Below are positions 3,105 through 26,021 of a DNA stretch of 64,000 bases, piece by piece (positions within the stretch are counted from its first letter, which is position 1; each line of letters opens with the position of its first letter). The position numbers and the translations under genes were made by a program. The notes under the pieces are model-generated. The model searched no databases and was not told the origin of the DNA. It worked only from the letters and a program-made list of their open reading frames with translations. This stretch comes from Mycobacteriales bacterium (GTDB taxonomy: Bacteria > Actinomycetota > Actinomycetes > Mycobacteriales > JBJMIH01), in assembly GCA_045806985.1 (NCBI GenBank), contig JBJMIH010000081.1, positions 7,669 to 71,668 on the forward strand. The letters run 5' to 3'.

Positions 3105-3174
3105 CCACCCTCCAACCCGCGCACCGGACAGCCAGCACGAGGATTTTCGAGCCCCCGCCCCGGGACCCGTCCCC

Positions 3175-4578: not shown

Positions 4579-4662
4579 ACCGCCAGCGTGTGCACGGGTC
4601 GGGCGAGCGGTCCAAGACGAACCGGACGGCGCTGTGATAAGCGCTGGTTATCATGGGATGGC

Positions 4663-5565: not shown

Positions 5566-5589
5566 ACGGCGCGTTCTCCGTGCCGCCGG

Positions 5590-7190: not shown

Positions 7191-9623
7191 TCAGCGGATG
7201 GTTACCGTCGTGTGCAGCGGGAGCGTGCCGGACGAGGAGCCGACCCGGACGGTGCGGCTGCCGGTGCCGAGCACCCAGGCGTGCGCGGCGGCGTCCCAGT
7301 GCTGGAGCTGCCGCTCGGCGACGAAGATGTCCACGGTGCGGGACCGGCCCGGGGCGAGGTGGACCTTGCGGTAGCCGGCGAGGGCCAGCACGGGCTGCTG
7401 GGCGCCGCCCGCGTTCGGGCTCGGGCCGAGGTACACCTGCGGCACCTCGTCGCCGGCACGCCGGCCGGTGTTGGTGAGCGTGACGCGGACCGACAGCCCG
7501 TGCCGGGTCCGGGTCACGTGCAGGCCGCGGTACGCGAACGTGGTGTAGGACAGGCCGTAGCCGAAGGGGAACAGCGTCGGCTGGTTCCGCGCGTCGTACC
7601 ACCGGTAGCCGACGTCGACGCCCTCGGAGTAGTCCTCCTCGAGGTTCACGCCCGGGTAGCGGGCCGGGTCGCCGCTGACCATGGTGTGCGCGTCGTCGAG
7701 CGGGAAGGTCTGGCTGAGCCGGCCGCCTGGCGACGCGTCGCCGAACAGCAGGCGCGCGGTGGCCCGGCCGCCCTGCTGGCCGGGGTAGTACATGTCCAGC
7801 ACGGCGCGGACCCGGGACAGCCACGGCATCGTCACCGCGGAACCGGTGTTGAGGACGACCACGACGTTCGGGTTGGCCGCGGCCACCGCCTCGATCAGCT
7901 GGTCCTGGCGGTACGGCAGGGCGAGCGTGGTCCGGTCGGCGCCCTCGGTGCCCTCGTCGTAGGCGAAGACGACGGCGGTACGGGCCGAGCGGGCGGCGGC
8001 GACCGCGGCGTCGAGGTCCGCCCGCGCCGCCTCCGGCGTCACCCAGGTGAGCCTGACCTGCAACGGGCCGGTGAGGAAGGCCGGGATGCCGAGCACGTCG
8101 ACGCCGAGCGAGTGGGTGCCGGCGGTGAGGTGCACGCTGGCCCGGACGTGGGTCAGGTCGTTGGACAGCGCGAAGCCGGTGGCGACCTGCGCGCCGTCCA
8201 GCGTGAGCGTGGCGATGCCCTGGGCCGCCTGGAGGTCGATCAGGTAGTCGCCGGTGGTGGCCACGGTGAGGGTACGGGTGGTGGAGAACGACTGGCCGTT
8301 GGGCAGGGCGCGGTCGCCGGTGAGATCGATCGGCCCGCCGGACAGCGCGGACGCCGGCACGAGCACGCCGATCGTGTCGATGCCCGGCGCGTACGAGACC
8401 GCGGCGCCGGTGCCGGCCCGCCGGGTGATCTCGTCCAGCGGGGTGGTCACGCTGGTCGGCGTGACCTGCGAGCTCCCGCCACCGCCGATGACGGGGTACC
8501 GGGCCGGCGTCCCGATCAGCGCGAGGCTGCGGGCCGCCGCACCGGTCAGCGGGAGCGCGCCGCCGGTGTCGCGGAGCAGGACCGCACCGTTCTCGGCGAC
8601 GTCCCGCGCGACCCGGTCGTCGGCCGCCGCGTCGAACACCGGCCGGGCCGGCAGGTGGCAGCGGGGTACCGGACCGGCGGGCGAGGCGCAGGCCAGCAGG
8701 CCGAACCTGGCCATCTGCACGAGGATGCGGCGCACCGCCGCGTCCAGCGCGGACCGGGGGATCGTGCCCTGCGCGATCGCGGCCTTCAGCGCGTCGCCGA
8801 GGTACGTGCCGGACGGCATCTCCTGGTCGAGGCCGGCGAGGACCGCGTCGGTGCTGTGCGTCGCGCCCCAGTCCGACATCACCCAGCCGCCGAAGCCCCA
8901 GTCGCGCTTGAGCACGCCGTTGAGGAGCGGAGCGTTGCCGCAGCCGGGCTCGCCGTTGATCTTGTTGTACGAGCACATCACCGCGCCGGTCCCGGCCCGC
9001 ACCGCGGCCTCGAACCCGGCCAGCTCGACCTCGCGCTCGGCCTGCTCGCCGACCCGGACGTCGACCGACATGCGGTCCCGCTCCTGGTTGTTCTCGGCGT
9101 AGTGCTTGACCGTCGCGATGAGACCCTGGCTCTGGATGCCGCCGACCTCCCACGCCACGGTGTTGCCGGAGACCAGCGGGTCCTCGCTGAACGTCTCGAA
9201 GTTCCGGCCGCCGTACGGCACCCGGATGGTGTTCACCATCGGCGACAGCAGCACGTCAAGGCCGAGCGCGCGGCCGTCCCGCCCGATCACCTGCCCGTAC
9301 CGGCGGGCCAGCGCCGGGTCGAAGGTGGACGCGAGCGCCACCGGCGCCGGCATCGCGGTACTCGGGTGCGTGACGCGCACGCCCGCCGGCCCGTCGGTGA
9401 GCCGCAGCGGCGGGATGCCCAGCCGGGCCACGCCCGGGATGTACCCCGCCTGGCCCAGCGACGCGGGGTCGGGGGCCCCGTGGACGAACGACACCTCCTC
9501 GTCCAGCGTCATTGCCCCCAGCAGGGCATCGACACCCGGCCGGCCGGGCCGGTCCGCCACGGCCGGAGCCGCGGTCGACAGGCAGGTCGCGACCGCGAGT
9601 ACCACCACGCCGGAACGCCTCAT
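7191..9623 (-). CDS. Secreted GH3 beta-glucosidase with an insert domain and C-terminal Fn3-like domain
   Basis: TDGPAGVR, GGRNFETFSEDP, KHY, VMSDWGA, FPFGYGLSYT, EVPQVY. Confidence 0.93.
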   Translation of the reverse strand: MRRSGVVVLAVATCLSTAAPAVADRPGRPGVDALLGAMTLDEEVSFVHGAPDPASLGQAGYIPGVARLGIPPLRLTDGPAGVRVTHPSTAMPAPVALASTFDPALARRYGQVIGRDGRALGLDVLLSPMVNTIRVPYGGRNFETFSEDPLVSGNTVAWEVGGIQSQGLIATVKHYAENNQERDRMSVDVRVGEQAEREVELAGFEAAVRAGTGAVMCSYNKINGEPGCGNAPLLNGVLKRDWGFGGWVMSDWGATHSTDAVLAGLDQEMPSGTYLGDALKAAIAQGTIPRSALDAAVRRILVQMARFGLLACASPAGPVPRCHLPARPVFDAAADDRVARDVAENGAVLLRDTGGALPLTGAAARSLALIGTPARYPVIGGGGSSQVTPTSVTTPLDEITRRAGTGAAVSYAPGIDTIGVLVPASALSGGPIDLTGDRALPNGQSFSTTRTLTVATTGDYLIDLQAAQGIATLTLDGAQVATGFALSNDLTHVRASVHLTAGTHSLGVDVLGIPAFLTGPLQVRLTWVTPEAARADLDAAVAAARSARTAVVFAYDEGTEGADRTTLALPYRQDQLIEAVAAANPNVVVVLNTGSAVTMPWLSRVRAVLDMYYPGQQGGRATARLLFGDASPGGRLSQTFPLDDAHTMVSGDPARYPGVNLEEDYSEGVDVGYRWYDARNQPTLFPFGYGLSYTTFAYRGLHVTRTRHGLSVRVTLTNTGRRAGDEVPQVYLGPSPNAGGAQQPVLALAGYRKVHLAPGRSRTVDIFVAERQLQHWDAAAHAWVLGTGSRTVRVGSSSGTLPLHTTVTIR

Positions 9624-10479: not shown

Positions 10480-11532
10480 TCAGGTGGCTGTGCAGGTGGG
10501 GGTCGGGGTTTCGTTGGCGGTGGTCCAGGTGGCGATGAAGCCGAACTGGGTGCTGGCGGCCGGGGCGAGGGCGCCGTTGTAGCCGACGTTGCGGGCGGTG
10601 ACCGTGGCGCCGGTACTGGTGACCGTCGCGCTCCAGGACTGGGTGACGGTCTGGCCGTTGGCGAACTGCCAGGTGACCGTCCAGCCGGTGATGGCGCTGC
10701 TGCCGGCGGTGACCGTCACCGACCCCTGGAAGCCGCCGGTCCACTGGTTGGCCACGCTGTAGGTGGCGGTGCAGCCGCCGCCGGGCGGGGGCGGGTTGGT
10801 GCCGCCGGGGGTACCGATGCTGCCGGGCACCGTCAGCAGGGCGTTGTACCAGGTCGCGGCCATCTTGTCGTACCCGGTCGCGTTCGGGTGGACGCCGTCG
10901 GCGAGGTCGGCGGCGGTCAGCGCGGAGTGCATGTCCACCAGGTGCACGTGCCTGCCGGCGCTCGCCTTGCTCTGGACGATGCCCGGGATCGCGGCGTTGT
11001 AGGTGCGTACGGCCGCCTCCGCGCTGGCCGAGGCGAGCGGGATGATCGTGGCGACGAACACCTCGGCGTCCGGCGCGGTCGCGGTGATGTGGTCGATCAG
11101 CGCGGACAGCCGGGCCGGCGCGTTCGCCAGGTCGTCGTTCTGGATCACGTCGTTGGTGCCGATGTGCAGCAGCACCGTGTGCGGGGTGAAGGTGTGCAGC
11201 CAGTTGACAATGTTGGCGTCGATCTGGTCGATCCGCCAGCCGGAGTGCCCCTCGTGGTCGTGGTCGCCGAGGCTGGCCGGCCCGTTGGAGAGCGACCCGA
11301 CGAAGTCCACCCGGTACCCGGCGTTGACGAAGCGTTGCCACAGCCCGATCCGGTACCCGCCGGGCACGGTGAGCCCGTCGGTGATCGAGTCACCGAGCGG
11401 CATCACCCGCACCCCGCCGTTGGACTCGGCGCGGGCGGCGCCGGCGCCGGCCGCGACGGTGGCGGCGGCCGCCAGCACCACGGCGACGACCGCGACCACG
11501 GCGCCGGCCCATCGTGGCAGGACTGTGCGCAT
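10480..11532 (-). CDS. Secreted SGNH hydrolase (CE3-like esterase) with C-terminal CBM2
   Basis: PLGDSIT, HEGHSG, HIGTND, DGVHP; Pro linker; CTATYSVANQWTGGFQG CBM2. Confidence 0.92.
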   Translation of the reverse strand: MRTVLPRWAGAVVAVVAVVLAAAATVAAGAGAARAESNGGVRVMPLGDSITDGLTVPGGYRIGLWQRFVNAGYRVDFVGSLSNGPASLGDHDHEGHSGWRIDQIDANIVNWLHTFTPHTVLLHIGTNDVIQNDDLANAPARLSALIDHITATAPDAEVFVATIIPLASASAEAAVRTYNAAIPGIVQSKASAGRHVHLVDMHSALTAADLADGVHPNATGYDKMAATWYNALLTVPGSIGTPGGTNPPPPGGGCTATYSVANQWTGGFQGSVTVTAGSSAITGWTVTWQFANGQTVTQSWSATVTSTGATVTARNVGYNGALAPAASTQFGFIATWTTANETPTPTCTAT

Positions 11533-11547: not shown

Positions 11548-13134
11548 TTACGCGGGGTCGAGGGCCAGGGCGTCGAAGACGAAGCTGGGGCTGAGGAAGC
11601 CCGTGCCGCCGCTGCCGCTGATGACCGAGATCGAGAGGCTGTTCGTGCCGGCGTGCAGGGCGCTGGCCGGGATCGTGAACGTGTAGGTGTGGTTGACGCC
11701 CCGCCAGGTGCCGCGGGTGATGCTGCGGGAGTTCAGGTCGACGGGGGCCGGCGAGTCGCTGGACGGCGAGCTCCAGCCGCCGATGGAGACCGCCGGCCGG
11801 CCGCCCGCGAACGCGATCGTCGTCGCGATCCGCAGCCGGGCGCCCTGCGCCGGGACGCTGCCCAGCGGGAAGGCCACCACCAGCGGCGAGTTGCCGTCCT
11901 TGAACATCGCCATCGGCACGGCCGACGCCCCGGACGAGGTGCTGACCGTGCCCGGGTTCCAGTTCGCCATCCGCACGTCGGAGGGGTGCATGGTCTCGAT
12001 CCGGTTGGCGTTCAGGAAGCCGGCGGGCGTGCCGTCGAAGGTGCCGAGCTGGAACAGCGCGCCGCTGGCCGGCACGTTGCCGGACAGCGCGGTGCTGGCG
12101 GTCTGTCCGGCCGCGACGGTGACGGTCGCCGTCGACCCGACCGCCAGCTCGCCGGCGTACAGGGTGGCGGTGTAGGTGCCGGGCCGGACCTTCGCGACGG
12201 TGAACCGGCCACTCTGGACGGAAGCCCAGTACTGCCCGTTGGGGCCGGCGAGCGCGGCGGTGACCGGCAGGCCATTCCACGACCCGGTCGCCGTGCCGGT
12301 GACCGTGCCGCGCTGCGCGGGTGACGGCAGTCCGGGGAGGTAGGCGGACAGGAAGTCCATGTTCACCGCGGCCGGGGCCCCGCCGTCGGTCACCGCCATC
12401 GCGTACGGCCCGTGCAGGCCGAGGCGCAGCGACTCGGTCTGGGCGTGGCCGCTGAACATGTACTGGGTGATGTTGGTCGCCGCGCCGGCGTTGTTGACCT
12501 CGATGTCCCGGAAGAACGGGCCGCCGGAGGTCATCTCCTGCGTCCCCGGGATCATGAACACGCCGTGCCCGTTCCCGCTGGCGCCGAACGGCTTCTGCGC
12601 GATCAGCCGCTCCGAGCTGTAGAACTTCGACGCCGTGGTGCCGTCGGCGAAGCCGAAGACGTCGGAGCCCTCCACGGTCCGGGTGCTGCCGGCGGTGCGG
12701 GCGGCGACCGGCGAGTTCGGCAGCAGCGCGCTGCTGACCCGGCTGATGAACCGGGCCTCGCCGGGGTTGAGCGCCTGGTTGATCCTGGTCGCCAGGTAGA
12801 TCGTGTTGTCACCCTTGCGGGCGAAGTAGTACTGCGTGACGCCGATCCCGGTGTTGGCGGCGGTGACCAGCAGTGAATTGCCGCCGTCGAACGTCTGGCT
12901 GGTGACGGTCGCCGAGCTCCAGCCCGACTCGAACTGCCCGGCGGCCTGGCCGGACGCGGCCAGCTCGACGCCGCGGTGCTTCAGCGACGTCATGTTGCCG
13001 TTCGTGCCGTCGATGGTGAACACCAGCCCGGAGCCGGTGTCGAAGGTGACGGACGTCGCGGCGGTGGCCCCGGTGCCCGGGTACAGCACGCCGGCGGCGA
13101 GCACGGCTCCGCAGAGCAACCGGGCCATCGTCAT
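11548..13134 (-). CDS. Secreted rhamnogalacturonan lyase, PL4 (RhgB-like)
   Basis: GEARFISR, SKFYS, SGGPFFRDI, YMFSGHAQTE, GLHGPY, PGTYTATLY, MHPSDVRM, SRSITRGTWRG. Confidence 0.85.
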   Translation of the reverse strand: MTMARLLCGAVLAAGVLYPGTGATAATSVTFDTGSGLVFTIDGTNGNMTSLKHRGVELAASGQAAGQFESGWSSATVTSQTFDGGNSLLVTAANTGIGVTQYYFARKGDNTIYLATRINQALNPGEARFISRVSSALLPNSPVAARTAGSTRTVEGSDVFGFADGTTASKFYSSERLIAQKPFGASGNGHGVFMIPGTQEMTSGGPFFRDIEVNNAGAATNITQYMFSGHAQTESLRLGLHGPYAMAVTDGGAPAAVNMDFLSAYLPGLPSPAQRGTVTGTATGSWNGLPVTAALAGPNGQYWASVQSGRFTVAKVRPGTYTATLYAGELAVGSTATVTVAAGQTASTALSGNVPASGALFQLGTFDGTPAGFLNANRIETMHPSDVRMANWNPGTVSTSSGASAVPMAMFKDGNSPLVVAFPLGSVPAQGARLRIATTIAFAGGRPAVSIGGWSSPSSDSPAPVDLNSRSITRGTWRGVNHTYTFTIPASALHAGTNSLSISVISGSGGTGFLSPSFVFDALALDPA

Positions 13135-13147
13135 GGGAGCGCTCCCA
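13134..13147. promoter_or_regulatory. CebR/CelR-type operator overlapping the RBS and start of the PL4 gene
   Basis: Perfect palindrome TGGGAGCGCTCCCA. Confidence 0.85.
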
Positions 13148-13191
13148 CCGGTAGAGAGGTGCTTGGTCCGTTTCGTACGCTTTGCGACCTT

Positions 13192-13203
13192 GATACCGGT
13201 AAC
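13192..13203. promoter_or_regulatory. Possible LacI-family operator
   Basis: Near-palindrome GATACCGGTAAC in the divergent intergenic region. Confidence 0.35.
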
Positions 13204-13241
13204 GCCACCCGCCGTCAAGGACCATGCCCGCCGTACGATGA

Positions 13242-14069
13242 GTGATCGACATCCTCCGCCTCGCCACCGTCGCGGCCGCCGCCACGGCGGTCGCGCTGGC
13301 CGGCGCGGGCTGCGGCGGCTCCCGGCACCACGTGCCGTCCGCCCGCGCCAGCTCCGCCCCGGCGGGCACGCCGGCGGAGCGGGCCAGGGCAGCGGCCGAC
13401 CTGCGGGTCCTGCGCGCCGCCGCCGGGCGGGACGCCTGCGCGGTCACCTGCCAGGGCGGGGCGGCGCTGCCGGAGGACGCCGCCACCCAGGCCTTCGCCC
13501 GCGACACCGCCTGCGCCGCCGGGCTGGCGCAGAACCTGCTGCTTGCCCTGCTGGACAAGGAGCACCAGCAGTACCCGGCGCAGACGCAGAAGGAGATGGT
13601 CGCGGCCGGCATCGACAAGTCGCTTGGTGTCGCCTCGATGAAGTACGGCACCGCCACCGACCTGATCCGCCTGCACCACCGCGCCGTCCCGGAGGCCGCC
13701 GACCGGACCGCGCTGGTCGCCCGGCTCGTCGACGATCCGCGGCTGGACATCCAGCTGGCCGCCGACCGGCTCGCCGACGCCAGGCACGCCGGCCTCGGCG
13801 ACCGGGGCGCCTTCGTCGCCTACGCGTTCTCCCCCGGCAACTGGCCGGCGCTGCGCGCCGCCGGGGACAGCACCGCGGCCTTCAGCGACGACCACACGCC
13901 GGGCCGCGAGTCGGCCCGCCAGCGCGCCGCCGACTACGACTACCTGACCGGCGTGCTGGCCGCCGCCGACGACTGGCTGGCACTCCCCGCCGGAGTCCGT
14001 GCCGCCACACAGGGACACCGGCGCCTCACCCTTCCCTACGCCGCGCCCCGCCGCCCCGACTGCGCCTGA
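13242..14069 (+). CDS. Putative lipoprotein with a possible lysozyme/lytic-transglycosylase-like domain
   Basis: Signal peptide ending LAGAGC; LLLALLDKE, SLGVASMK, DDPRLDIQLAADRL and AFVAY follow SLT motif order. Confidence 0.5.
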   Translation: MIDILRLATVAAAATAVALAGAGCGGSRHHVPSARASSAPAGTPAERARAAADLRVLRAAAGRDACAVTCQGGAALPEDAATQAFARDTACAAGLAQNLLLALLDKEHQQYPAQTQKEMVAAGIDKSLGVASMKYGTATDLIRLHHRAVPEAADRTALVARLVDDPRLDIQLAADRLADARHAGLGDRGAFVAYAFSPGNWPALRAAGDSTAAFSDDHTPGRESARQRAADYDYLTGVLAAADDWLALPAGVRAATQGHRRLTLPYAAPRRPDCA

Positions 14070-14196: not shown

Positions 14197-16890
14197 TTGA
14201 ACGTCATCGAGTTCACCCTGGCCGATCAGGATTTCTGCGTCCCGATCGACCAGTGGGCGGCGGGAGTGCCGTACGCGCCGAGCCGGCCGGTGCCCGGCTG
14301 GGTACGCCGCGAGGGCGGGCTCTGGGCGCACTGGTCGCCGCCGGCCGGCCCGCCACTGCCGGACCAGGGCTGGAAGGTGCACGTCTCGGCCCGGTTCGAC
14401 CGGACCCAGCAGGTGCTGGACGCGGTCACCGACCTCTGCGGCCGGCACGGCGTCCCGTACAAGCACGTGCGCACCGACCGGCTGTTCCTGTGGCTGCACC
14501 ACAAGCACGGCCCGCGCGTCCAGAGCGGCAAGTTCTGCGCCCTCTACCCCGCCGGCGTGGACGCCGCCCGCGCGCTGATGGAGGCGCTGGCCGCCGCGCT
14601 CGACGGCGAGCGCGGGCCGTACGTGCTCACCGACCGCCGGTTCGGGTCCTCCGGCGTCGTGTCCTACCGGTACGGCGCCTTCACGCCCCGCTTCCAGCTC
14701 ACCGCCGACGGCGGCCGTATCCCGATCGTCGCCGGGCCGGACGGCCGGGACCTCCCGGACGAGCGGCTGCCCCGGTTCAGCCTCCCGGACGGGATCACCG
14801 ACCCGTTCGCGCCGGTGGCGGAGGCCGGCGCGGCGGCGCCCGAGCCCGGGCCGGTGTCGCTGCACGGGTACACCTTCACCAGGGTGCTCCAGTTCAGCAA
14901 CGCCGGTGGCGCGTACCGGGCGACCGCGGCGGACGGGCGGGCGGTGTTCGTCAAGGAGGCCCGCGCCGACAACGGGTACCAGTGGGACGGCTCGGCAGCG
15001 CAGGAGCGGCTGCGCCGCGAGCGCGACACGCTGCGCGCCCTGCACGCGGCCGTGCCGGGGATCTGCCCGGAGCCGCTGGACCACTTCCGGGAGTGGGAGC
15101 ACGAGTTCCTGGTCACCGAACTGGTGCCGGGCATCCCGCTGCTGTCGTGGATGAGCCGGCACAACCCGGTGACCTTCACCGATCCGGACGCGGCGGCGTA
15201 CACCGCGTACCACGACCGCTGCCGCGCCCTGCTCGGCGCGCTGCGCGACCAGCTCGACCGGCTGCACGCGGCCGGCTACGCGTTCGTGGACCTCAACCCG
15301 CGCAACGTCCTGGTCGACTCCGACGACCGGCCCCGGCTGATCGACTTCGAGGAGGCCCGACCGGTCGGCGGCGAGCGGCGGAGGGTGCACGGCGCCGAGG
15401 ACTACCTGCCGGCGGAGGCCCGCGACCCGGCCCGGTTCGACAGCATGGCCATCGAGTACTTCGACTCCTACGCCCTCGCCGCGCTCGCGCAACTGCTGCT
15501 GCACCCGCTGCACCCGGTGCTCAACCGCAACCCGGACGCCGCCGCCCACCTGGCCGCCGACCTGCCGGCGGTGCCTGCCGACCTGTGGCGGGCGGCGGGC
15601 CGGTACCGGCAGCAGGCCGGGCCCGGCCTGCTGCCGGCGCCGGAGGACGTGGCCGCCGCGCCGCGGCAGTGGCTGGGCTGGCTCCACGACCGGATCGTCG
15701 CCGGCCTGGAGTCGATGGCCGATCCGGCGGCCGACCGGCCGTACCCGCTCGGCCCGCACGGGTTCGCGTCGCACCGGCACAACCTGGCCTACGGCACCGC
15801 GGGTGTGGTCCGAGCCCTGCACCGCGCCGGCGTGCCGGTCCACCCGCGGGTCGTCGGCCAGCTGCTGGACGCGGCGATCACGGACCGGGACGCGCTGCCG
15901 CCGGGCCTGTTCACCGGTACCGCCGGGCTGGCCTGGACCCTCGCCGACCTGGGCCAGCTGGACGCCGCCCGCGACCTGCTGGCGGACGCCGACCGGCACC
16001 CGCTGGCCACCGGCGGGGACGTCACGCTGGCGCACGGGACGGCCGGGATCGCGCTCACCCACCTGGCCCTGTACCGCCACGACGGCGACACCGGCCATCT
16101 CGACAGGGCGGCCGACCTGCTCGCCGGCCTGCCCAGCGGTCCCGAACTGGTGGCCGGCCTCGGGCCCGACGACAGCACCGGCTGGCGGGTGGGCCGGCCC
16201 GGGATCGCGCTCGCCCTGTACTACCTGGCCAGGCTCACCGGCGACAGGGACGCCCTGCGCCGCGGCCGGGCGCTGCTGCTGGACGACCTCGACCAGGCGG
16301 TCGAGGACCCGGCCGGCCTCCAGTTCCGGGTGTCGCGGAAGGACCAGCGGGCCGAGCCGTACCTGGCGACCGGCTCGGCCGGGTTCGCGCTGGTCGCCGG
16401 CAGGTACCTCGGCAACCCGGGCGGCGCCCCCGGCGGTGACGGCGACGGCACGGATCCGCTCGCGGCCGCCTACCGGCGCTGCCTCACCACGGTCCGCACG
16501 ATCCTGCTGCCGGTGCTGCCGGCCCTGTTCGATGGCCTGTCCGGGCTGGGTCTGGTGCTGGCCGACCTCGCCGCGACGACCGGCGACGAGTCGCTGCACG
16601 CGGCGGCGGTCCGGTCCGGGCGGGCGCTGTTCAAGTACGCGGTGCCGCGCTCGGGCGGCATCTGCTTCCTCGGCCTGGGCAACCGGTTCAGCGCCGACCT
16701 GGCCTACGGGTCCGCCGGCGTGCTGCTGTTCCTGGACGAGCTGCTGCACGGCCGCCGCGACGCCCTCTTCACGCTCGATGCCGATCCGGTGCGCGAACGC
16801 ACCCCGCAGAGGTCCCCGGGACATCCGGGTCACCACCCCACCGGCGGAGGGCTTCCGGCCCGCCGCCCCACCGAAGGAGTCACCGCATGA
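14197..16890 (+). CDS. lanKC: Class III lanthipeptide synthetase (lyase-kinase-cyclase)
   Basis: QGWKVHVS, SGKFCALYP, GPYVLTDRR, YRYGAF lyase; VKEAR, DLNPRN, LIDFE kinase; LanC-like repeats (LAYGTAG, YLATGSAG, DLAYGSAG) without Cys zinc ligands; TTG start after GGAGGG. Confidence 0.92.
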   Translation: MNVIEFTLADQDFCVPIDQWAAGVPYAPSRPVPGWVRREGGLWAHWSPPAGPPLPDQGWKVHVSARFDRTQQVLDAVTDLCGRHGVPYKHVRTDRLFLWLHHKHGPRVQSGKFCALYPAGVDAARALMEALAAALDGERGPYVLTDRRFGSSGVVSYRYGAFTPRFQLTADGGRIPIVAGPDGRDLPDERLPRFSLPDGITDPFAPVAEAGAAAPEPGPVSLHGYTFTRVLQFSNAGGAYRATAADGRAVFVKEARADNGYQWDGSAAQERLRRERDTLRALHAAVPGICPEPLDHFREWEHEFLVTELVPGIPLLSWMSRHNPVTFTDPDAAAYTAYHDRCRALLGALRDQLDRLHAAGYAFVDLNPRNVLVDSDDRPRLIDFEEARPVGGERRRVHGAEDYLPAEARDPARFDSMAIEYFDSYALAALAQLLLHPLHPVLNRNPDAAAHLAADLPAVPADLWRAAGRYRQQAGPGLLPAPEDVAAAPRQWLGWLHDRIVAGLESMADPAADRPYPLGPHGFASHRHNLAYGTAGVVRALHRAGVPVHPRVVGQLLDAAITDRDALPPGLFTGTAGLAWTLADLGQLDAARDLLADADRHPLATGGDVTLAHGTAGIALTHLALYRHDGDTGHLDRAADLLAGLPSGPELVAGLGPDDSTGWRVGRPGIALALYYLARLTGDRDALRRGRALLLDDLDQAVEDPAGLQFRVSRKDQRAEPYLATGSAGFALVAGRYLGNPGGAPGGDGDGTDPLAAAYRRCLTTVRTILLPVLPALFDGLSGLGLVLADLAATTGDESLHAAAVRSGRALFKYAVPRSGGICFLGLGNRFSADLAYGSAGVLLFLDELLHGRRDALFTLDADPVRERTPQRSPGHPGHHPTGGGLPARRPTEGVTA

Positions 16891-17006
16891 ACCAGGTTCT
16901 CGCGCTGCAGACCGCGCTGGAGTCCGACGTGGACGAGCCCGGCATGGGCGTCGCCGAGGGCAACCACAGCAGCGTCAGCATCATCTGCAGCATCACCAAC
17001 AGCTGA
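16887..17006 (+). CDS. lanA: Class III lanthipeptide precursor, 39 aa: MNQVLALQTALESDVDEPGMGVAEGNHSSVSIICSITNS
   Basis: Manual translation; AAGGAG RBS; ATGA overlap with the lanKC stop; VLALQ leader motif; S-x2-S-x2-C core. Confidence 0.88.
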   Translation: MNQVLALQTALESDVDEPGMGVAEGNHSSVSIICSITNS

Positions 17007-17019
17007 TCACCTGGTAGCC

Positions 17020-17058
17020 GGGGTACCGGGCGGCGCCCGCGCAGCCGCCCGGTACCCC
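17020..17058 (+). terminator. Stem-loop after the precursor gene (partial terminator or mRNA stabiliser)
   Basis: Perfect 15-bp inverted repeat GGGGTACCGGGCGGC / GCCGCCCGGTACCCC. Confidence 0.75.
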
Positions 17059-17082
17059 CACCCACTGGGCAAGGAGCCTCCC

Positions 17083-18336
17083 ATGGCGACCGCCACCACG
17101 GCCTCCGCCGGACCGCCTGCGGAGACGGACCGGCCCGGCAGCAGGTGGGACTTCCACCGGTACCTGGCGGGGAGCGCGACGTCGACGTTCGGGACCATCT
17201 TCACCGGGGTGGCGGCGTCGGCGCTGGCCGTCCAGACCTTCCACGTCACCGGATTCCAGGCGGGGCTGCTGACGGCGGCGTCGACGATGCCCGCGCTGCT
17301 GGTGATGCCGGTGGCCGGGGCGTTCGCCGACCGGGTGGCGCGGCCGCGGCGGGTGCTGATCGGCACCGAGCTGGCCGCCGGCCTGGCCGTCGGCGCCTTC
17401 ATGGTCGGGGTGGCGACCCACCTCGCCGGATACGGCTGGCTGCTGGCGCTCACGCTCGTCCTCGGGGTGCTCACCGCGATCGCCGGCACCCTCTTCTTCA
17501 TCCACCTGAACAGCCTGCGGTCGGGTGCGCTGGCCGAGTCGCGGGCGCGTCTCCAGGCCACCTCGTACGTGGTCGGCCTGGGCGCGAGCGCCTCCGCCGC
17601 ACCGGCGATCAGCGCCTTCGGGCCGGTCACCGCGCTGGCCACCGACGCGGTGAGCTACCTGGTCAGCGCGGTGTCGCTGCGCTCGATCCGGACGCCGGAC
17701 CGCAACCCGGCGCTGGACCCGTCCCGCGCGCCGGCCCCGGTCCACCGCGAGGCCGTGGAGGGCATCCGCATCCTGATCCGGAGCCGGCTGCGGCCGGTGG
17801 TGATGTACGTCGTGATCGGCCAGTCCGCCTTCGCCGGCGTCGTCGCGCTCAAGGCGCTGTTCTTCCTCCGCACGCTGCGGATGCCGCTGTACCTGTACGG
17901 CATCCCGGGCCTGTGCGGCACGGCCTTCGGCGTGCTCGGCTCGATCGTGGCCAGCCGCTCGGTCAGGGCCGGGCGCGACGCGGGCCGGCTCACCGCCGGC
18001 TACTGGGCCGGCGCGGCGACCTCGCTGCTGCTGCTGCCCGCGTCGGCGGGTCCGCTGCCGGTGGCGGTGGCCTCGGTGTCGGCCAGCCTCACCGCATTCA
18101 CCCTGTGCGGGGCCGCCGCCAACGTGGCGCTCGTCGCGCTGATCTCGGAGTCCACTCCGGAACACGCCATGGGCCGCGTCACCTCGTCGGTGATGGTCGT
18201 CGGCACGCTGGCCACCACGGTGGGCGCGCTCGCCGCCGGCGGCCTCGCCGAGCTGCTCGGCATCCGCGACGCCCTGTGGTGCTGCTGCCTCACCGGGGTC
18301 GCCGCGCTTCCCCTCCTCCGGTCGTTGCTCCGCTAA
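17083..18336 (+). CDS. MFS exporter of the lanthipeptide cluster
   Basis: About 12 TM helices, AGAFADR motif, TPEHAMGRV; AAGGAG RBS. Confidence 0.85.
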   Translation: MATATTASAGPPAETDRPGSRWDFHRYLAGSATSTFGTIFTGVAASALAVQTFHVTGFQAGLLTAASTMPALLVMPVAGAFADRVARPRRVLIGTELAAGLAVGAFMVGVATHLAGYGWLLALTLVLGVLTAIAGTLFFIHLNSLRSGALAESRARLQATSYVVGLGASASAAPAISAFGPVTALATDAVSYLVSAVSLRSIRTPDRNPALDPSRAPAPVHREAVEGIRILIRSRLRPVVMYVVIGQSAFAGVVALKALFFLRTLRMPLYLYGIPGLCGTAFGVLGSIVASRSVRAGRDAGRLTAGYWAGAATSLLLLPASAGPLPVAVASVSASLTAFTLCGAAANVALVALISESTPEHAMGRVTSSVMVVGTLATTVGALAAGGLAELLGIRDALWCCCLTGVAALPLLRSLLR

Positions 18337-18345
18337 CGTGAACGA

Positions 18346-19413
18346 GTGCGTACCTTGCGGGCGGCTGTCGCGGCCGTCGTGGTGGGGGCCGGGCTGGCCG
18401 GGTGCGGATCCGGTGGCGGAGGTTCCGGCCGGGTCGCGGCCAGCAGCAGGGAGGTGTCGTTCGTCGTCGACGGCACCCGGGCGTACGGGACGCTGGACGT
18501 GCCGGCCCATCGCCGCGGCCGGCGCCTGGCCGCGGCGTTGCTGCTGGCGGGCAGCGGGAACACCGACCGGGACGGGAACCAGAAGCCGAGGCTGACCCCG
18601 GACACGCTGAAGCAGGTCGCCGGCGCGCTGGACCGGATGGGCATCGCCAGCCTGCGCTTCGACAAGTACTTCGCCGGCCGGACCGGCCCGGGCCGCTACG
18701 CCGCCGATCCCGGCTCGATCGACCTGGACGCCTTCCTCCGGCAGGCCGGCGGGGCGTACCGGTTGCTCGCCGGCGAACCGGTGACGGACCGGCGCCGGCT
18801 GCTGGTGGTCGGGCACAGCGAGGGCGGCATGTACGCGCTCCTGCTGGCCGGGTCCGTGACGCCGCGCCCGGCCGGGCTGGCCCTGGTCGAGCCACAGGAC
18901 GAGCGCATCCTCGACCTCGTCGCGCTCCAGCTGGAGGAGGGTCTCGACCGGCAGGTGTCCGCCGGCGCCATCGGCGCGGACGTCGCCCGGCGGAACGTCG
19001 AGGGCGTGCGGCAGGCCGTCGCCGACTTCCGCGCCGGCCGGCCACCGAACACGGCCGGCCTGCTGCCCTCGGTGACCAGCGTGCTGGCGACGTTCGTCCT
19101 GTCGCCGGCCAACGTGCGGTACACCCGCACCGACGACGCCGTCTACGTGCCGGACCACGCCGCCAAGCTGCCGCGCGGCACCCGGGTGCTGGTGACCGAC
19201 GGCACCGCGGACTCCAACGTCCCGCCCAGCACGATCAGGCCGCTGGTCGACGCCCTGGCCAGCGCCGGCGCCAGCGGACCCGGGCTGGTCACCCTCGACG
19301 GCCTGAACCACGACCTCAACCCGGCGGGGACGAGGCCGAACGGCGCGCCGCTGGCCCCGGCGTTCCTGGCCGCCCTGCGGGGCTGGGCACGGCCGTACGC
19401 GACGGCCTCCTGA
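18346..19413 (+). CDS. Alpha/beta-hydrolase lipoprotein
   Basis: LAGC lipobox; AGSGNTDRDGN, LRFDK, GHSEGG nucleophile, GTADSNV, LNH. Confidence 0.85.
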   Translation: MRTLRAAVAAVVVGAGLAGCGSGGGGSGRVAASSREVSFVVDGTRAYGTLDVPAHRRGRRLAAALLLAGSGNTDRDGNQKPRLTPDTLKQVAGALDRMGIASLRFDKYFAGRTGPGRYAADPGSIDLDAFLRQAGGAYRLLAGEPVTDRRRLLVVGHSEGGMYALLLAGSVTPRPAGLALVEPQDERILDLVALQLEEGLDRQVSAGAIGADVARRNVEGVRQAVADFRAGRPPNTAGLLPSVTSVLATFVLSPANVRYTRTDDAVYVPDHAAKLPRGTRVLVTDGTADSNVPPSTIRPLVDALASAGASGPGLVTLDGLNHDLNPAGTRPNGAPLAPAFLAALRGWARPYATAS

Positions 19414-19452: not shown

Positions 19453-19466
19453 TGAGAGCGCTCTCA
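19453..19466. promoter_or_regulatory. CebR-type operator variant upstream of the GH5 gene
   Basis: Palindrome TGAGAGCGCTCTCA, two symmetric changes from TGGGAGCGCTCCCA. Confidence 0.7.
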
Positions 19467-19522: not shown

Positions 19523-21016
19523 ATGAGGAGATATCGCGTTGCCCTGGTGGCAGCGGCGGCGACCAGCCTGGTGTCGGCCGGCGCCGTGGCGGCCGTGATG
19601 CACGCGTCGGCGGCCAACAGCGGCTGCTCGGTGACGTACAAGGTGACCAACCAGTGGCAGGGCGGCTTCCAGGCCGACGTCTCGTTCACCAACCTGGGCG
19701 ACCCGCTGACCTCGTGGAAGCTGGAGTTCGACTTCCCCGCCGGCCAGGCCGTCACCCAGGGCTGGAACGCCACCTGGTCGCAGTCCGCCGCGCACGTCAC
19801 CGCCGCCAACATGAGCTGGAACGGCAGCGTCGGCACCAACGGGACGGTGTCCTCGCTCGGCTTCACCGGCTCCTGGACCGGCAGCAACCCGGTACCCGCC
19901 GCGTTCAGCATCAACGGCACCGCCTGTACCGGCAGCGTGACGAGTTCGCCGACCCCCACGCCGACCGGCAGCTCACCGCCGCCCCCGCCGCCCGGCGGCC
20001 CCGCCCCCGCGCTGCACGTGTCCGGCAACAAGCTGGTGACATCGGCCGGCAAGACCTACCGGCTGCTCGGCGTCAACCGGGCCAGCGCCGAGTTCGCCTG
20101 CGTGCAGGGCAAGGGCATGTGGGACAGCAGCCCGGTGGACCAGGCCTCGGTCAACGCCATGCTGGCCTGGAACATCCACGCGGTGCGGATCCCGCTGAAC
20201 GAGGACTGCTGGCTCGGCACCTTCGGCACCCCCAGCGGGGCGACGTACCAGCAGGCCGTCAAGGACTACGTGAACCTGCTGGTGTCCAACGGCATCAACC
20301 CGATCATCGACCTGCACTGGACGCACGGCGCGTACACCGGTCCCAACTCCGCCTGCGCGGACGCGAACGCGACCTGCCAGAAGCCGATGCCGGACGCCGA
20401 GTTCACGCCGACCTTCTGGACCCAGGTCGCCACCATGTTCAAGGGGAACAACGCGGTCCTGTTCGACCTGTTCAACGAGCCGTACCCGGACGCGGCCAAC
20501 AACTTCTCCAACGCCACCGCGGCATGGACCTGCCTCCGTGACGGCGGCACCTGCGCCAACATCGGCTACCAGGTCGCCGGGATGCAGAGCCTGGTCAACG
20601 CGGTCCGCGGCGCCGGCGCCACGAACGTACTCCTGGTGCCCGGCCTGACCTGGACCAACGACCTGACCCAGTGGCTGGCCTTCAAGCCGACCGACACGGC
20701 GGGCAACATCGTCGCGTCGTGGCACTCGTACAACTTCAACGCGTGCGTCACCACGTCCTGCTGGGACAGCCAGATCGGCTCGGTGGCCGCCCAGGTGCCG
20801 GTGCAGGCCGGTGAGATCGGCCAGAACACCTGCGCGCACGACTACATCGACCAGGTGATGGCCTGGGCGGACGCGCACGGCGTCGGGTACACCGCCTGGA
20901 CCTGGAACCCGTGGGGTTGCAGCCAGGGCAACGTCCTCATCACCGACTACAACGGCACGCCGACCGACTCGTACGGCGCCGGCTACAAGGCACACCTGCT
21001 CACCGTGAACCCGTAA
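19523..21016 (+). CDS. Secreted CBM2-GH5 endoglucanase
   Basis: N-terminal CBM2; AVRIPLNEDCW, DLHW, FNEP, HSY, GEIG. Confidence 0.92.
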   Translation: MRRYRVALVAAAATSLVSAGAVAAVMHASAANSGCSVTYKVTNQWQGGFQADVSFTNLGDPLTSWKLEFDFPAGQAVTQGWNATWSQSAAHVTAANMSWNGSVGTNGTVSSLGFTGSWTGSNPVPAAFSINGTACTGSVTSSPTPTPTGSSPPPPPPGGPAPALHVSGNKLVTSAGKTYRLLGVNRASAEFACVQGKGMWDSSPVDQASVNAMLAWNIHAVRIPLNEDCWLGTFGTPSGATYQQAVKDYVNLLVSNGINPIIDLHWTHGAYTGPNSACADANATCQKPMPDAEFTPTFWTQVATMFKGNNAVLFDLFNEPYPDAANNFSNATAAWTCLRDGGTCANIGYQVAGMQSLVNAVRGAGATNVLLVPGLTWTNDLTQWLAFKPTDTAGNIVASWHSYNFNACVTTSCWDSQIGSVAAQVPVQAGEIGQNTCAHDYIDQVMAWADAHGVGYTAWTWNPWGCSQGNVLITDYNGTPTDSYGAGYKAHLLTVNP

Positions 21017-21026
21017 CCCACGCGGA

Positions 21027-21062
21027 CGGGCCCCGGCCGGTCACCTGCCCGGTCGGGGCCCG
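21027..21062 (+). terminator. GC-rich stem-loop after the GH5 gene
   Basis: CGGGCCCCGGCCGG / CCGGTCGGGGCCCG. Confidence 0.55.
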
Positions 21063-21087
21063 ACCCACCGCACGGACGGAGGAGACC

Positions 21088-22152
21088 ATGCCACGCAAGC
21101 CCGTCCTGTTCGCCGTCCTCGCCGCGCTCGCCGCCGCGCTGACCCTCACGGTGACCGAGCACGCCTTCCCGGCCGCCGCCCCGGTCCGGATCATGCCGCT
21201 CGGGGACTCCATCACCGCCGGGCCCGGGTGCTGGCGCGCCATCCTCTGGCACCACCTGCAGACCACCGGGTACACCAACATCGACTTCGTCGGCAGCGTC
21301 GCCGACGGGGGCTGCAACTACGGGTACGACTACGACGGCGACAACGAGGGCCACGGCGGCTTCTCCGCCACCGGCATCGCCGACCAGAACCAGCTGCCGG
21401 CCTGGCTGGACGCGGCGAGGCCGGACATCGTCCTCATGCACCTCGGCACCAACGACATGTGGGGCGGCTCGATCCCCGTCGACACCGTGCTCGCCGCCTA
21501 CACGAAGCTGATCGGCCAGATGCGCGCCGAGAACCCGGACATGAAGATCGTCGTCGCGCAGATCATCCCGATGAACCCGCCCGGCTGCGCCACCTGCGCC
21601 GCCGAGGTGGTAGCGCTCGACAACGCGATCCCGGGCTGGGCCGCCGGCCTCACCACGGCCCGGTCGCCGATCGCCGTCGCCGACCTGTGGACCGGCTTCG
21701 ACACGGTCGCCGACACCAACGGCGACGGGGTGCACCCCAACGACTCCGGCTTCCAGAAGATGGCCGACGCCTGGTACCCGGCGCTGACCCCGCTGCTGAC
21801 GCCCACCCCGCCCAGCTCGCCGCCGCCCAGCTCGCCGCCGCCCGCCGGCGGTTGCACGGCAAGCTACCGGGTGGTCAGCCAGTGGTCCGGCGGCTTCCAG
21901 GGCGAGGTGACCGTGCGCAACACCACCGCCGCCACCACCGCCCGCTGGACCGCCGCCCTGGCCTTCACCGCCGGCCAGCAGATCACCCAGTCCTGGAACG
22001 CCACCGTCACCCAGACCGGCACGGCGGTCACCGCCCAGAACCTGAGCTGGAACGGCACCCTCGCCCCCGACGCCTCCACCACCTTCGGCTTCCTGGCCTC
22101 CTCCACCGGCACCACCAATCCACCTCCGCCCGTCACCTGCACGACCAGCTGA
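21088..22152 (+). CDS. Secreted SGNH hydrolase with C-terminal CBM2
   Basis: PLGDSIT, NEGHGG, HLGTND, DGVHP; CBM2; ATG after GGAGGAG. Confidence 0.9.
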   Translation: MPRKPVLFAVLAALAAALTLTVTEHAFPAAAPVRIMPLGDSITAGPGCWRAILWHHLQTTGYTNIDFVGSVADGGCNYGYDYDGDNEGHGGFSATGIADQNQLPAWLDAARPDIVLMHLGTNDMWGGSIPVDTVLAAYTKLIGQMRAENPDMKIVVAQIIPMNPPGCATCAAEVVALDNAIPGWAAGLTTARSPIAVADLWTGFDTVADTNGDGVHPNDSGFQKMADAWYPALTPLLTPTPPSSPPPSSPPPAGGCTASYRVVSQWSGGFQGEVTVRNTTAATTARWTAALAFTAGQQITQSWNATVTQTGTAVTAQNLSWNGTLAPDASTTFGFLASSTGTTNPPPPVTCTTS

Positions 22153-24311: not shown

Positions 24312-24375
24312 TTGACAGGGTTATGCCCGAATTGGGATGATTATATGTTTCGAGCTTTTGTTCGAAATTTCGAAC
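24312..24375 (+). promoter_or_regulatory. Promoter and palindromic operator of the arabinofuranosidase genes
   Basis: TTGACA at 24312; perfect palindrome GTTCGAAATTTCGAAC at 24360-24375. Confidence 0.65.
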
Positions 24376-24449
24376 GAAAGCGCTGCTCAGGCCTGCCAGT
24401 TCGCACCGACCGGTCGATGTGCCATGCCCCACGAACGGAAGGAACGACG

Positions 24450-26021
24450 ATGGTGGTCCGGTCACGACCTCGGCGCGCCCGGCGGGCGCTGCTGCTCGGC
24501 GGTGTCGCCGTCGCGCTCGGCGCCGGCGTGCCGGTGGGCCTTCCCGGTGTCGCGCGGGCCGCGGGCCCGCTTCCCTGCGACCTCTACGCGTCCGGCGGGA
24601 CGCCCTGCGTGGCCGCGCACAGCACCACGCGGGCGCTGTTCTCCAGCTACAACGGCAGCCTCTACCAGGTACGCCGGGCCTCGGACAGCGCCACGGCCAA
24701 CATCGGCGTGCTGGCGGCGGGCGGGTACGCCAACGCCGCCGCGCAGGACTCGTTCTGCGCCAACACCTCTTGCGTCATGACGGTCATCTACGACCAGACC
24801 TCCCGGCACAACGACCTGCCCGTCGAGCCGGCCGGGACGGCGGGGCCGGCCAACGCGGGCGTGCCGGCCGACGCGCTGCCGGTGACCGCCGGCGGGCACA
24901 CGGTGTACGGGGCGTCGTTCTCCGGCCGGATGGGCTACCGGCACGCCGCCGCCTCCGGCACCGCCCGCAACGGCCAGCCGGAGGGGATGTACATGGTCAC
25001 CTCCGGTACCCACGTCAACGGCGCGTGCTGCTTCGACTACGGCAACGTCGAGGTGCCGATCGCCGACACCGGCAACGGGCACATGGACGCGATCAACTTC
25101 GGCACCGAGTGCTGGTTCTCGCCCTGTTCGGGCAGCGGCCCGTGGGTACAGGGCGACCTGGAGAACGGCCTGTTCCAGTCCGACGACGGCGTCAGCAAGA
25201 ACCCGTCGAACACCGGCAACGCCGCGCCGTTCGTGACCGCGGTGCTGAAGAACAACGGCCAGAACTTCTTCGCGCTCAAGGACGGCAACGCCCAGTCCGG
25301 CGGCCTGAACACCCGGTACTCCGGCGCGCTGCCGACGTCCCGGCCCGGGTACGAGCCGATGCACCAGGAGGGCTCCATCGTCCTCGGCACCGGCGGCGAC
25401 AACAGCAACGGCTCGCACGGCTCGTTCTTCGAGGGCGTGATGACGGCCGGCCTGCCCAGCGACGCGACCGAGAACGCCGTGCAGGCCAACATCGTGTCGG
25501 TCGGGTACGGCGCGCCGAGCCCGGTCGCCGGCGGCACCCTCAACCCGGGCTCGACGATCTCGCTGCGCGCGACCACCGCGTGCTGCACCACCCGGTACGT
25601 CCGGCACCAGAACGGCAACGCCGTTACCTCGGTGATCAGCTCAAGCAGCTCGGCGCTGGACAGGAACGACGGGTCCTGGATCGTGCGCCGCGGCCTCACG
25701 AACAGCGCTGCCGACAACTCGTGCGTGTCGTTCGAGTCGCGCAACTTCCCCGGCGACTTCCTGCGGCACTTCAACTTCCAGCTGTTCCGGCAGCCGGACG
25801 ACGGCACCGCGATCTTCCGGTCCGATGCCACCTTCTGCCCGGAGCCCGGCAAGAACGGCCAGGGCACGTCGTTCCGGTCGGTCAACTTCCCGACCCGGTA
25901 CCTCCGGCACTTCAACAACACCCTGTACATCGCCAGTGACGGCGGCTCGAACGCGTTCGACTCGGCCACATCCTGGGCCGACGACGTGAGCTGGGTCGTC
26001 AGCGCGCCCTGGGCGCCGTAG
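24450..26021 (+). CDS. GH54 alpha-L-arabinofuranosidase with CBM42 (AbfB) domain
   Basis: PCDLY..GTPCVAAHSTTRAL, CCFDYGN, DLENGL, GTGGDNS, FFEG; SFESRNFPGDFLRH. Confidence 0.92.
   Translation: MVVRSRPRRARRALLLGGVAVALGAGVPVGLPGVARAAGPLPCDLYASGGTPCVAAHSTTRALFSSYNGSLYQVRRASDSATANIGVLAAGGYANAAAQDSFCANTSCVMTVIYDQTSRHNDLPVEPAGTAGPANAGVPADALPVTAGGHTVYGASFSGRMGYRHAAASGTARNGQPEGMYMVTSGTHVNGACCFDYGNVEVPIADTGNGHMDAINFGTECWFSPCSGSGPWVQGDLENGLFQSDDGVSKNPSNTGNAAPFVTAVLKNNGQNFFALKDGNAQSGGLNTRYSGALPTSRPGYEPMHQEGSIVLGTGGDNSNGSHGSFFEGVMTAGLPSDATENAVQANIVSVGYGAPSPVAGGTLNPGSTISLRATTACCTTRYVRHQNGNAVTSVISSSSSALDRNDGSWIVRRGLTNSAADNSCVSFESRNFPGDFLRHFNFQLFRQPDDGTAIFRSDATFCPEPGKNGQGTSFRSVNFPTRYLRHFNNTLYIASDGGSNAFDSATSWADDVSWVVSAPWAP

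Follow-up and report, generated by a model that had tools for sequence, protein, structure and literature searches.

The window analysed here, a 64,000-nucleotide (nt) stretch of contig JBJMIH010000081.1 (assembly GCA_045806985.1) from an uncultured soil actinomycete, very probably harbours an intact, minimal class III lanthipeptide cassette within an island of plant-cell-wall-degrading enzymes. The cassette consists of a lanthionine synthetase gene (lanKC), a short precursor gene (lanA), a hairpin and a gene for a transporter of the major facilitator superfamily (MFS). The enzyme is of a known family, its clade commonly shows this layout, and what is new is the core sequence of the precursor. 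A first-pass annotation of this DNA had located the same elements together with a neighbouring hydrolase gene, and we confirm their positions:

14197-16890, + strand: lanKC, class III lanthionine synthetase of 897 amino acids with lyase, kinase and zinc-free cyclase domains
16887-17006, + strand: lanA, precursor of 39 amino acids, directly after lanKC
17020-17058, + strand: GC-rich hairpin between lanA and the MFS gene
17083-18336, + strand: MFS transporter of 417 amino acids
18346-19413, + strand: lipoprotein alpha/beta-hydrolase of 355 amino acids, with lipobox LAGC and G-H-S-E-G

These elements lie in high-GC DNA (0.72-0.78 across 10-24 kb of the window). Between 13.2 and 19.4 kb, the plus strand carries five genes and one small open reading frame (ORF), each with a third-position GC content (GC3) of 0.95-0.97.

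The synthetase, its precursor and the downstream elements

The lanKC reading frame is open from 13999, and its likely start is the TTG at 14197, which has GGAGG 7 nt upstream; homologues align from LanKC residue 1-6, in agreement with this start. The protein matches the Pfam domains RamC_N (8e-60; residues 93-275), Pkinase (303-475) and LANC_like (674-756). Against the NCBIfam equivalog NF038151, 'class III lanthionine synthetase LanKC' (cut-off 575 bits), the protein reaches 655 bits over model positions 3-832 of 833, which upholds the class III assignment made in the first-pass annotation. Class IV (LanL) identity was ruled out, as the class IV model reached 365 bits against a cut-off of 650. 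The closest solved structures are likewise LanKC enzymes (9wj0 and 8sao, E 5e-60).

Ten of ten LanKCs in the clade, comprising the window enzyme and nine relatives, share K60, H62, K253, E275, D365, N370 and D383-F384-E385. From our own reading and the description in a review (PMC8341899), K60 and H62 would be the lyase Lys and His, and the other residues the catalytic residues of the kinase. A hallmark of class III is a cyclase that lacks the Cys-Cys-His zinc ligands (PMC8341899, PMC7268733). Beyond position 500 the window enzyme has just two Cys residues, C762 (which 2 of the 10 clade members have) and C823 (1 of 10). Its G-x-A-G repeats (YGTAG, TGTAG, HGTAG, TGSAG and YGSAG) contain no Cys, and across the ten members no Cys or His of the cyclase part is conserved as a zinc triad. 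Judged by its sequence, the window LanKC is a class III synthetase with catalytic residues intact.

LanA, with the translation MNQVLALQTALESDVDEPGMGVAEGNHSSVSIICSITNS, starts at an ATG that overlaps the lanKC stop codon (ATGA) and has GAAGGAG upstream as a ribosome-binding site. Its GC3 is 0.95 over 39 codons, compared with 0.96-0.97 in the neighbouring genes. Residues V4-L5-A6-L7-Q8 form a leader motif of the LxLQ type found in class III precursors (PMC7268733, PMC8169954). These features, and the alignment with the precursors of relatives described below, bear out the proposal that the small ORF encodes the precursor. The putative 12-residue core, SSVSIICSITNS, comprises S28-x2-S31-x2-C34 and a tail with S35, T37 and S39. 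It conforms to the S-x2-S-x2-5-C motif defined for class III (PMC8341899) and, as first described, holds a single motif and a single Cys.

A pattern joining leader and core ([ILVMF][LIVM]x[LIVMF]Q in the early part, followed by [ST]xx[ST]x2-5C) matches 2 of the 1078 start-to-stop ORFs of 20-80 amino acids in the whole window. Both lie at the lanA locus, one being the antisense shadow of the other; the ORF beside lanKC is not a chance occurrence. The 39-residue LanA stands as a called gene on three contigs in the protein collection, and a word search of 5.8 billion proteins, with the LanA query extended by two codons, found LanA alone. A 633-amino-acid HMMER match with six matched stretches was taken as spurious. 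Among 400 genomes of the order, matches to LanA were at chance level and inside long ORFs (best E 0.004), and were rejected as relatives. Fragments of the core were not found in the excerpted precursor table of Walker et al. or in the paper texts searched. The absence of a match to any characterised or catalogued product, asserted in the first-pass annotation, thus holds across the protein searches, that table and those texts. These searches point to a new core sequence and to a precursor family that is small and so far unannotated.

A predicted complex of LanKC with LanA scored 0.51 (runs 0.51, 0.63 and 0.51) against 0.02 for the best control, with a predicted local distance difference test (pLDDT) value of at least 41 for the partner and a contact agreement between runs of at least 56%. 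Of 157 solved complexes, 116 attained the mark applied to such predictions, and 2 of 215 mismatches did so too; at scores of 0.60 or below, just 18 of the 157 solved complexes attained it, plus both mismatches. As solved LanKC-LanA complexes exist, the pass may stem from likeness to them, and the prediction supports binding only weakly.

The hairpin that follows lanA has fully complementary (100%) arms of 15 nt (17020-17034 and 17044-17058) and a 9-nt loop. The segment 17004-17082 folds at -45.5 kcal/mol (z = -3.2), and 0 of 200 shuffled versions fold as well; a simple terminator scan did not list the 17020-17058 hairpin. It may act as a partial terminator or attenuator, or as a stabiliser of the mRNA 3' end. 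The MFS protein encoded next matches PF07690 (6e-19) and, weakly, the H+ antiporter model TIGR00900, and is the putative exporter of the peptide. The succession of a strong hairpin and an MFS gene is therefore as originally reported.

Conservation in relatives and comparison with described systems

We read eight genome loci whose LanKC is 29-47% identical to the window enzyme and one same-order locus at 46%. In most of these nine loci the precursors are short, share the leader and have just one S-[ST]-x-S-x2-3-C motif. When LanA was aligned with eight precursors of five related loci, M1, L5, L7, Q8, L11, S28, S31 and C34 were invariant (9/9). The protein collection also holds 11 metagenome LanKCs at 60-63% identity, and a scan of metagenome contigs yielded three informative soil loci, L106, L107 and L137 (LanKC 59-62% identical). 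Directly after lanKC, each has a precursor that was not called as a gene: MTNILALQTLVDVEGDSASEAADHSNWSFICSIFTN in L106, MSDVLALQTLSDVEGDCASEAADHSNWSIICSLITN in L137 and MNNVLALQTMSSVEGDVAEAAAVILSSLSLHCTMATH in L107. These precursors are 44-47% identical to LanA, with L5, L7, Q8, S28, S31 and C34 invariant (4/4). The window, L106 and L137 precursors have the core H-S-x-x-S-x-I-C-S...T-N in common, while that of L107 is a cousin. Precursors of the clade are mostly missed by gene finders, so protein-database searches wrongly make them look orphan.

The layout is conserved along with the precursor. L106, L107 and L137 each show lanKC, lanA, a strong GC-rich hairpin and then an MFS gene, which defines these four elements as the conserved unit; the hairpins at the equivalent spot have stems of 15-17 bp and differ in sequence. 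The MFS proteins encoded after lanA are 50-52% identical to that of the window in L137, L107 and L106, and 33-37% identical in L113, L033, L135 and L037. By comparison, five genomes of the order with a hydrolase orthologue or the sister LanKC contain no MFS match above 33% identity. MFS genes stand beside the nearest LanKC relatives, so MFS export is a trait of the clade and no oddity of this locus, contrary to the initial view that it was unusual. Five relatives additionally encode a prolyl oligopeptidase (propeller plus S9 domain), located after the MFS gene in L137, L033, L113 and L037 and after lanA in L034. By our reading, the motif's first Ser is preceded by a Pro at a distance of two residues in four of these five. 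An open literature search found no statement on MFS genes in class III lanthipeptide clusters, although an MFS-plus-S9 layout may already be in print in the noursin supplement.

A FastTree phylogeny of 41 LanKC rows placed the window enzyme in a clade of 10 actinomycete rows (support 99), with L040 as its sister (support 96). This clade is separate from a 24-row SapB/AmfS-like clade that includes the second LanKC of the same genome. Five rows forming a long-branch group (L042, L043, L045, L060 and L064) were disregarded because they are probably 'longest ORFs' in the wrong frame. Of 30 further loci examined, 27, the SapB-like loci of the same order (L041-L067), have two-motif precursors, whereas those of the window clade are mostly single-motif.

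Other precursor types occur within the clade. Behind the sister LanKC at L040 (genome G363, minus strand, 983-1482; 46% identity) stand three tandem precursors. Their leader reads MEEALQLQ, and they have an additional Cys upstream and the motif S-x2-S-x4-C; there is no MFS gene within 1.5 kb. At the clade loci L126, L127, L128, L132, L144 and L036, as many as six precursors stand in tandem, with the Cys N-terminal to the Ser residues (C-x-S-x-x-x-S, e.g. ...PCFSVSWST...), the reverse of the usual class III order.

The first-pass annotation regarded the single-motif core as a departure from known class III peptides. The literature does not bear this out: andalusicin has only one labionin, formed by an S(X)2S(X)2C motif and demonstrated by nuclear magnetic resonance (PMC8169954), a 'monomer labionin motif' is described for lipolanthines (PMC8341899), noursin has one Cys and one labionin (PMC10206099), and the Walker et al. 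table includes single-motif class III precursors. The accompanying contrast with 'two motifs plus ABC exporters' applies to SapB-type clusters only, because the wider LanKC clade repeatedly shows precursors with one motif, MFS genes and prolyl oligopeptidases. The claim of an unusual architecture is thus not borne out.

Andalusicin (AncKC/AncA, Bacillus thuringiensis), together with the 'STxSNxC' III-a/III-c systems, resembles the cassette in its single S(X)2S(X)2C motif, its VLxLQ leader and a cluster without a protease gene (PMC8169954, PMC13504147). An Amycolatopsis relative, L037, carries STISNCC, as AncA does (PMC8169954). In contrast to the cassette, andalusicin has Firmicutes producers, a long Thr-rich N-terminal part of the core, a C-terminal ring, an N-methyltransferase and ABC transporters; the cassette has a 12-residue core, a conserved five-residue tail after the Cys and an MFS gene. 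The six ORFs of 13.2-19.4 kb contain no methyltransferase domain and the core has no Thr-rich part, which sets the cassette outside the andalusicin-like family.

Noursin (NorKC/NorA, Streptomyces noursei) is, like the window system, an actinomycete class III peptide with a one-Cys precursor (PMC10206099). Relatives of the cassette share a noursin-type layout, LanKC-LanA-MFS-oligopeptidase, and the noursin cluster itself contains an S9 peptidase and a transporter. The precursor features differ: in noursin the labionin involves residues 3, 7 and 15, and a special LanKC subgroup installs a histidinobutyrine between His11 and Dhb8 (Dhb, dehydrobutyrine), derived from a Thr three positions ahead of the His (PMC10206099). 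The LanA core has S-x2-S-x2-C and no Thr so placed; its only His, H27, precedes the motif, with T37 ten residues later, which sets it outside the noursin-like family.

SapB and AmfS (RamC/AmfT) have the same enzyme family and leader logic as the cassette. They differ in having two motifs, ABC exporters and a LanKC of another clade, against one motif and an MFS gene here. Lipolanthines such as microvionin require a Cys at the C-terminus along with a decarboxylase and a lipid-building part. Lipolanthine identity was rejected for the cassette, as five residues come after its Cys and no decarboxylase or lipid-building domains occur in the six ORFs of 13.2-19.4 kb. In flavipeptin (FlaP) and LanPB-type clusters, an encoded prolyl oligopeptidase cuts after a leader Pro (PMC8341899, PMC7268733); the window cluster has no such peptidase, and the only leader Pro of LanA lies 10 residues before the motif.

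Proposed maturation and alternative readings

The enzyme logic of class III systems (PMC8341899) suggests how the peptide might be made. LanKC would bind the VLALQ leader of the 39-residue LanA, and its kinase and lyase domains would phosphorylate and eliminate core Ser and Thr residues at up to six sites (S28, S29, S31, S35, T37 and S39). The zinc-free cyclase would add Cys34 to dehydroalanine 31 (Dha31), and the resulting enolate would either attack Dha28 to give one labionin or be protonated to give one lanthionine. Dha and Dhb would remain within the ring and along the conserved S-I-T-N tail (S35 and T37). The bare 12-residue core has a computed monoisotopic mass of 1209.591 when unmodified, 1119.538 after loss of 5 H2O and 1101.528 after loss of 6 H2O. 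The hairpin after lanA would end most transcripts, so that the message for synthetase and precursor would exceed that for the transporter. The MFS protein would export the peptide, and the leader would be removed by proteases encoded elsewhere, possibly among the seven M1-family peptidases of the genome, three of which (L090-L092) are large.

Several observations weigh against the reading of an intact cassette that matures in this way. LanA scores 19.1 bits (E 0.001) against NF038159 lanthi_III_b, below the cut-off of 30, although this is a subfamily model and the low score is therefore no bar to class III membership. Apart from itself, LanA has no significant HMMER match among 1.84 billion representative proteins, and its family appears to consist, beyond the window, of three unannotated metagenome ORFs that we read ourselves. 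No U tract follows the hairpin stem, and the role given to the hairpin is conjectural. Labionin is not assured, because CurKC makes lanthionine from labionin-type motifs (PMC8341899). The evidence from RNA consists of assembled contigs, which can carry DNA and cannot rank genes. The gap of 9 nt between the MFS and hydrolase genes would fit co-transcription of the hydrolase. Finally, the window cluster has no dedicated leader protease, the oligopeptidase of its relatives being absent here; as the assembly is 83% complete, that gene may sit in the unassembled part.

The ring type is the most evenly balanced question. Andalusicin, in which an equally spaced motif gives labionin in the major product and the remaining Ser and Thr undergo dehydration (PMC8169954), suggests by analogy that the LanA ring is a labionin, which we give slightly better than an even chance, and the same dehydration of its other Ser and Thr residues is proposed for LanA. 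A plain lanthionine ring, between Cys34 and residue 31 or 28, in which the Ser not used stays as Dha, has a substantial chance, somewhat short of even. CurKC forms mainly lanthionines from labionin-type motifs and EryKC and StaKC form mixtures (PMC8341899), AncKC can install both ring types, and labionin and lanthionine are identical by mass alone (PMC8169954). The invariance of S28, S31 and C34 in both precursor alignments favours labionin over this alternative, since it fits a need for all three residues. The earlier suggestion of one labionin or lanthionine was a reasonable guess.

The role of the adjacent hydrolase bears on leader removal. It is unlikely, though worth weighing, that this lipoprotein belongs to the cluster as a non-orthologous replacement of the oligopeptidase and trims the leader outside the cell after MFS export. 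The gene occupies the exact slot of the oligopeptidase in L137, L033, L113 and L037, and it starts 9 nt past the MFS stop on the same strand. The Ser158-Asp289-His322 triad that we assign to it is in place (in 5 of 18 homologues the Ser is Gly), and its best Pfam match, weak and partial, is Peptidase_S9 (PF00326, 1.3e-6), with no stretch passing alone, beside weak alpha/beta-hydrolase matches. The oligopeptidase propeller PF02897 has 0 matches in the 83%-complete genome assembly, where the M1 domain PF01433 has 7 over its cut-off. Proline iminopeptidases and tricorn factor F1 also appear lower among the fold matches of the hydrolase.

Against such a role, the hydrolase was found in 0 of 49 LanKC loci. 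A homologue occurs in 56 of 401 genomes of the order, with identity of up to 68% in another family compared with 46% for the best LanKC. Its orthologues (47-68% identical) stand in varied surroundings, and 0 of 19 such loci have an MFS, LanKC or GH5 gene within 1.5 kb. The protein has no match to the PF02897 propeller and, by this domain test, is not a prolyl oligopeptidase (S9); BLASTP against the L037 and L034 oligopeptidases gave nothing significant (best E 1.1 and 0.087). Its AlphaFold model (pLDDT 88, predicted template modelling score 0.87) is closest in fold to an uncharacterised alpha/beta-hydrolase, followed by ferulic and cinnamic acid esterases, a PETase and lipases (E 1e-16 to 1e-13; template modelling score 0.5-0.58 by query). 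In addition, the genes around it form an island with GH3, PL4, GH5, GH62, arabinofuranosidase and acetylxylan-esterase-like members. We judge the hydrolase most likely to be a feruloyl-esterase-like member of this carbohydrate-degrading island, as its modelled fold suggests. It is probably a bystander of the cassette, adjacent and possibly co-transcribed, and not the cluster gene that the first-pass annotation had taken it for.

Leader removal by a protease outside the cluster has precedents. Most of the class III clusters studied lack a protease gene (PMC8169954, PMC7268733), and unclustered leader proteases have been discussed (PMC8341899, PMC8169954). Oligopeptidases within class III clusters are also in print, namely FlaP and LanPB (PMC8341899, PMC7268733) and NorP (PMC10206099). 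In the window cassette, the leader protease would be of the unclustered kind. One such enzyme, AplP, is said to belong to the M1 family, reportedly from work by Chen et al. in 2019.

A broader proposal joins the precursor to the hydrolase: precursors of the form H-S-x-x-S-x-I-C-S-x-(x)-T-N (the window, L106 and L137, with L107 as a cousin) would constitute an undescribed family of 12-14-residue, single-labionin peptides with a reactive dehydrated tail, produced by uncultured soil actinomycetes and exported by a dedicated MFS protein. In the window genome, the membrane-anchored hydrolase would have taken the place of the oligopeptidase and would trim the leader outside the cell. As a whole this is quite improbable; if it were true, such trimming would be a maturation route not described for lanthipeptides.

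That the cassette is silent, or a decaying remnant giving no mature product after loss of the oligopeptidase, is very improbable: the oligopeptidase gene was found neither in the cluster nor in the assembly, unrelated carbohydrate genes flank the cassette and a simple scan, not suited to actinomycete promoter types, found 0 sigma-70-like promoter sites, but all three cassette ORFs are intact with a strong coding signal, the LanKC catalytic residues are kept, there are RNA-library contigs for lanA and the MFS gene, and a missing protease gene is common in the class III clusters studied.

These RNA contigs, from one soil metatranscriptome library, are identical to the window at 16826-16976 (0 differences) and differ from it once at 17855-18087, which hints weakly at transcription; no conclusion attaches to the parts that no RNA contig covers. 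The library belongs to a different study from the DNA-matching runs. Four DNA sequencing runs match this DNA; they provide no independent support because they come from one soil study and may include the source sample. A second RNA-library contig (run X5, record 25) aligns to 16824-16929, where lanKC meets lanA, with 10 differences before diverging, and probably represents the cassette of a related strain in the same soil.

Genomic surroundings and significance

The source genome (G000; 6.87 Mb in 323 contigs, 83% complete) is the sole member of its family in the genome set. Domain searches of window positions 1-34000 reveal the plant-cell-wall degradation island that surrounds the lanthipeptide cassette, which also includes acetylxylan-esterase-like genes, two further MFS genes and an FtsX permease. 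The island genes located, with the ORF directly upstream of lanKC, are:

7191-9620, - strand: GH3
10480-11529, - strand: GDSL esterase with CBM2
11548-13218, - strand: PL4 rhamnogalacturonan lyase
13242-14069, + strand: lipoprotein-like ORF upstream of lanKC, GC3 0.96, lipobox-like LAGAGC
19523-21016, + strand: GH5 with CBM2 (cellulase)
20911-22149, + strand: GDSL esterase with CBM2
24312-26018, + strand: arabinofuranosidase B
26035-27075, + strand: GH62

Two 14-bp palindromes bracket the cassette: TGAGAGCGCTCTCA at 19453-19466, upstream of the GH5 cellulase gene, and TGGGAGCGCTCCCA at 13134-13147, upstream of the rhamnogalacturonan lyase gene. These are two matches, against 0.28 expected. TGGGAGCGCTCCCA has the sequence of the CebR/CelR operator of actinomycete cellulase regulons.

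The ORF at 13242-14069 matches no Pfam or NCBIfam family and is absent from the five genomes tested and from 40 metagenome LanKC loci. In the 5.8-billion-protein collection it has only three homologues, metagenome proteins without exception, at 85, 85 and 49% identity. By a language-model search it weakly resembles lytic transglycosylases (0.94, with 148 shared features), below the usual level for true family members. We considered this lipoprotein as an immunity protein and found the idea unsupported, as the ORF is absent beside all other LanKC loci tested.

The same genome contains a second class III cluster, which is SapB/AmfS-like (locus L089 on contig C308):

1416-3038, - strand: fused ABC transporter
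3115-3234, - strand: two-motif precursor, MALLDMQAIELAETAKGGDGGNSVLSVLCHSSHSVTICL
3250-5802, - strand: RamC-like LanKC, 37% identical to that of the window

If expressed, the window cassette would yield a class III lanthipeptide scaffold that is new and very short, from a lineage without a cultured member in the genome set. Antiviral, antinociceptive, antibacterial, metal-binding and morphogenetic compounds all occur among class III peptides, a range that makes new cores useful for screening, and the three-gene cassette, at about 4.2 kb, is small enough for direct heterologous expression. The wider point is modest: soil actinomycetes hold a whole clade of LanKC enzymes with single-motif precursors, MFS exporters and prolyl oligopeptidases.

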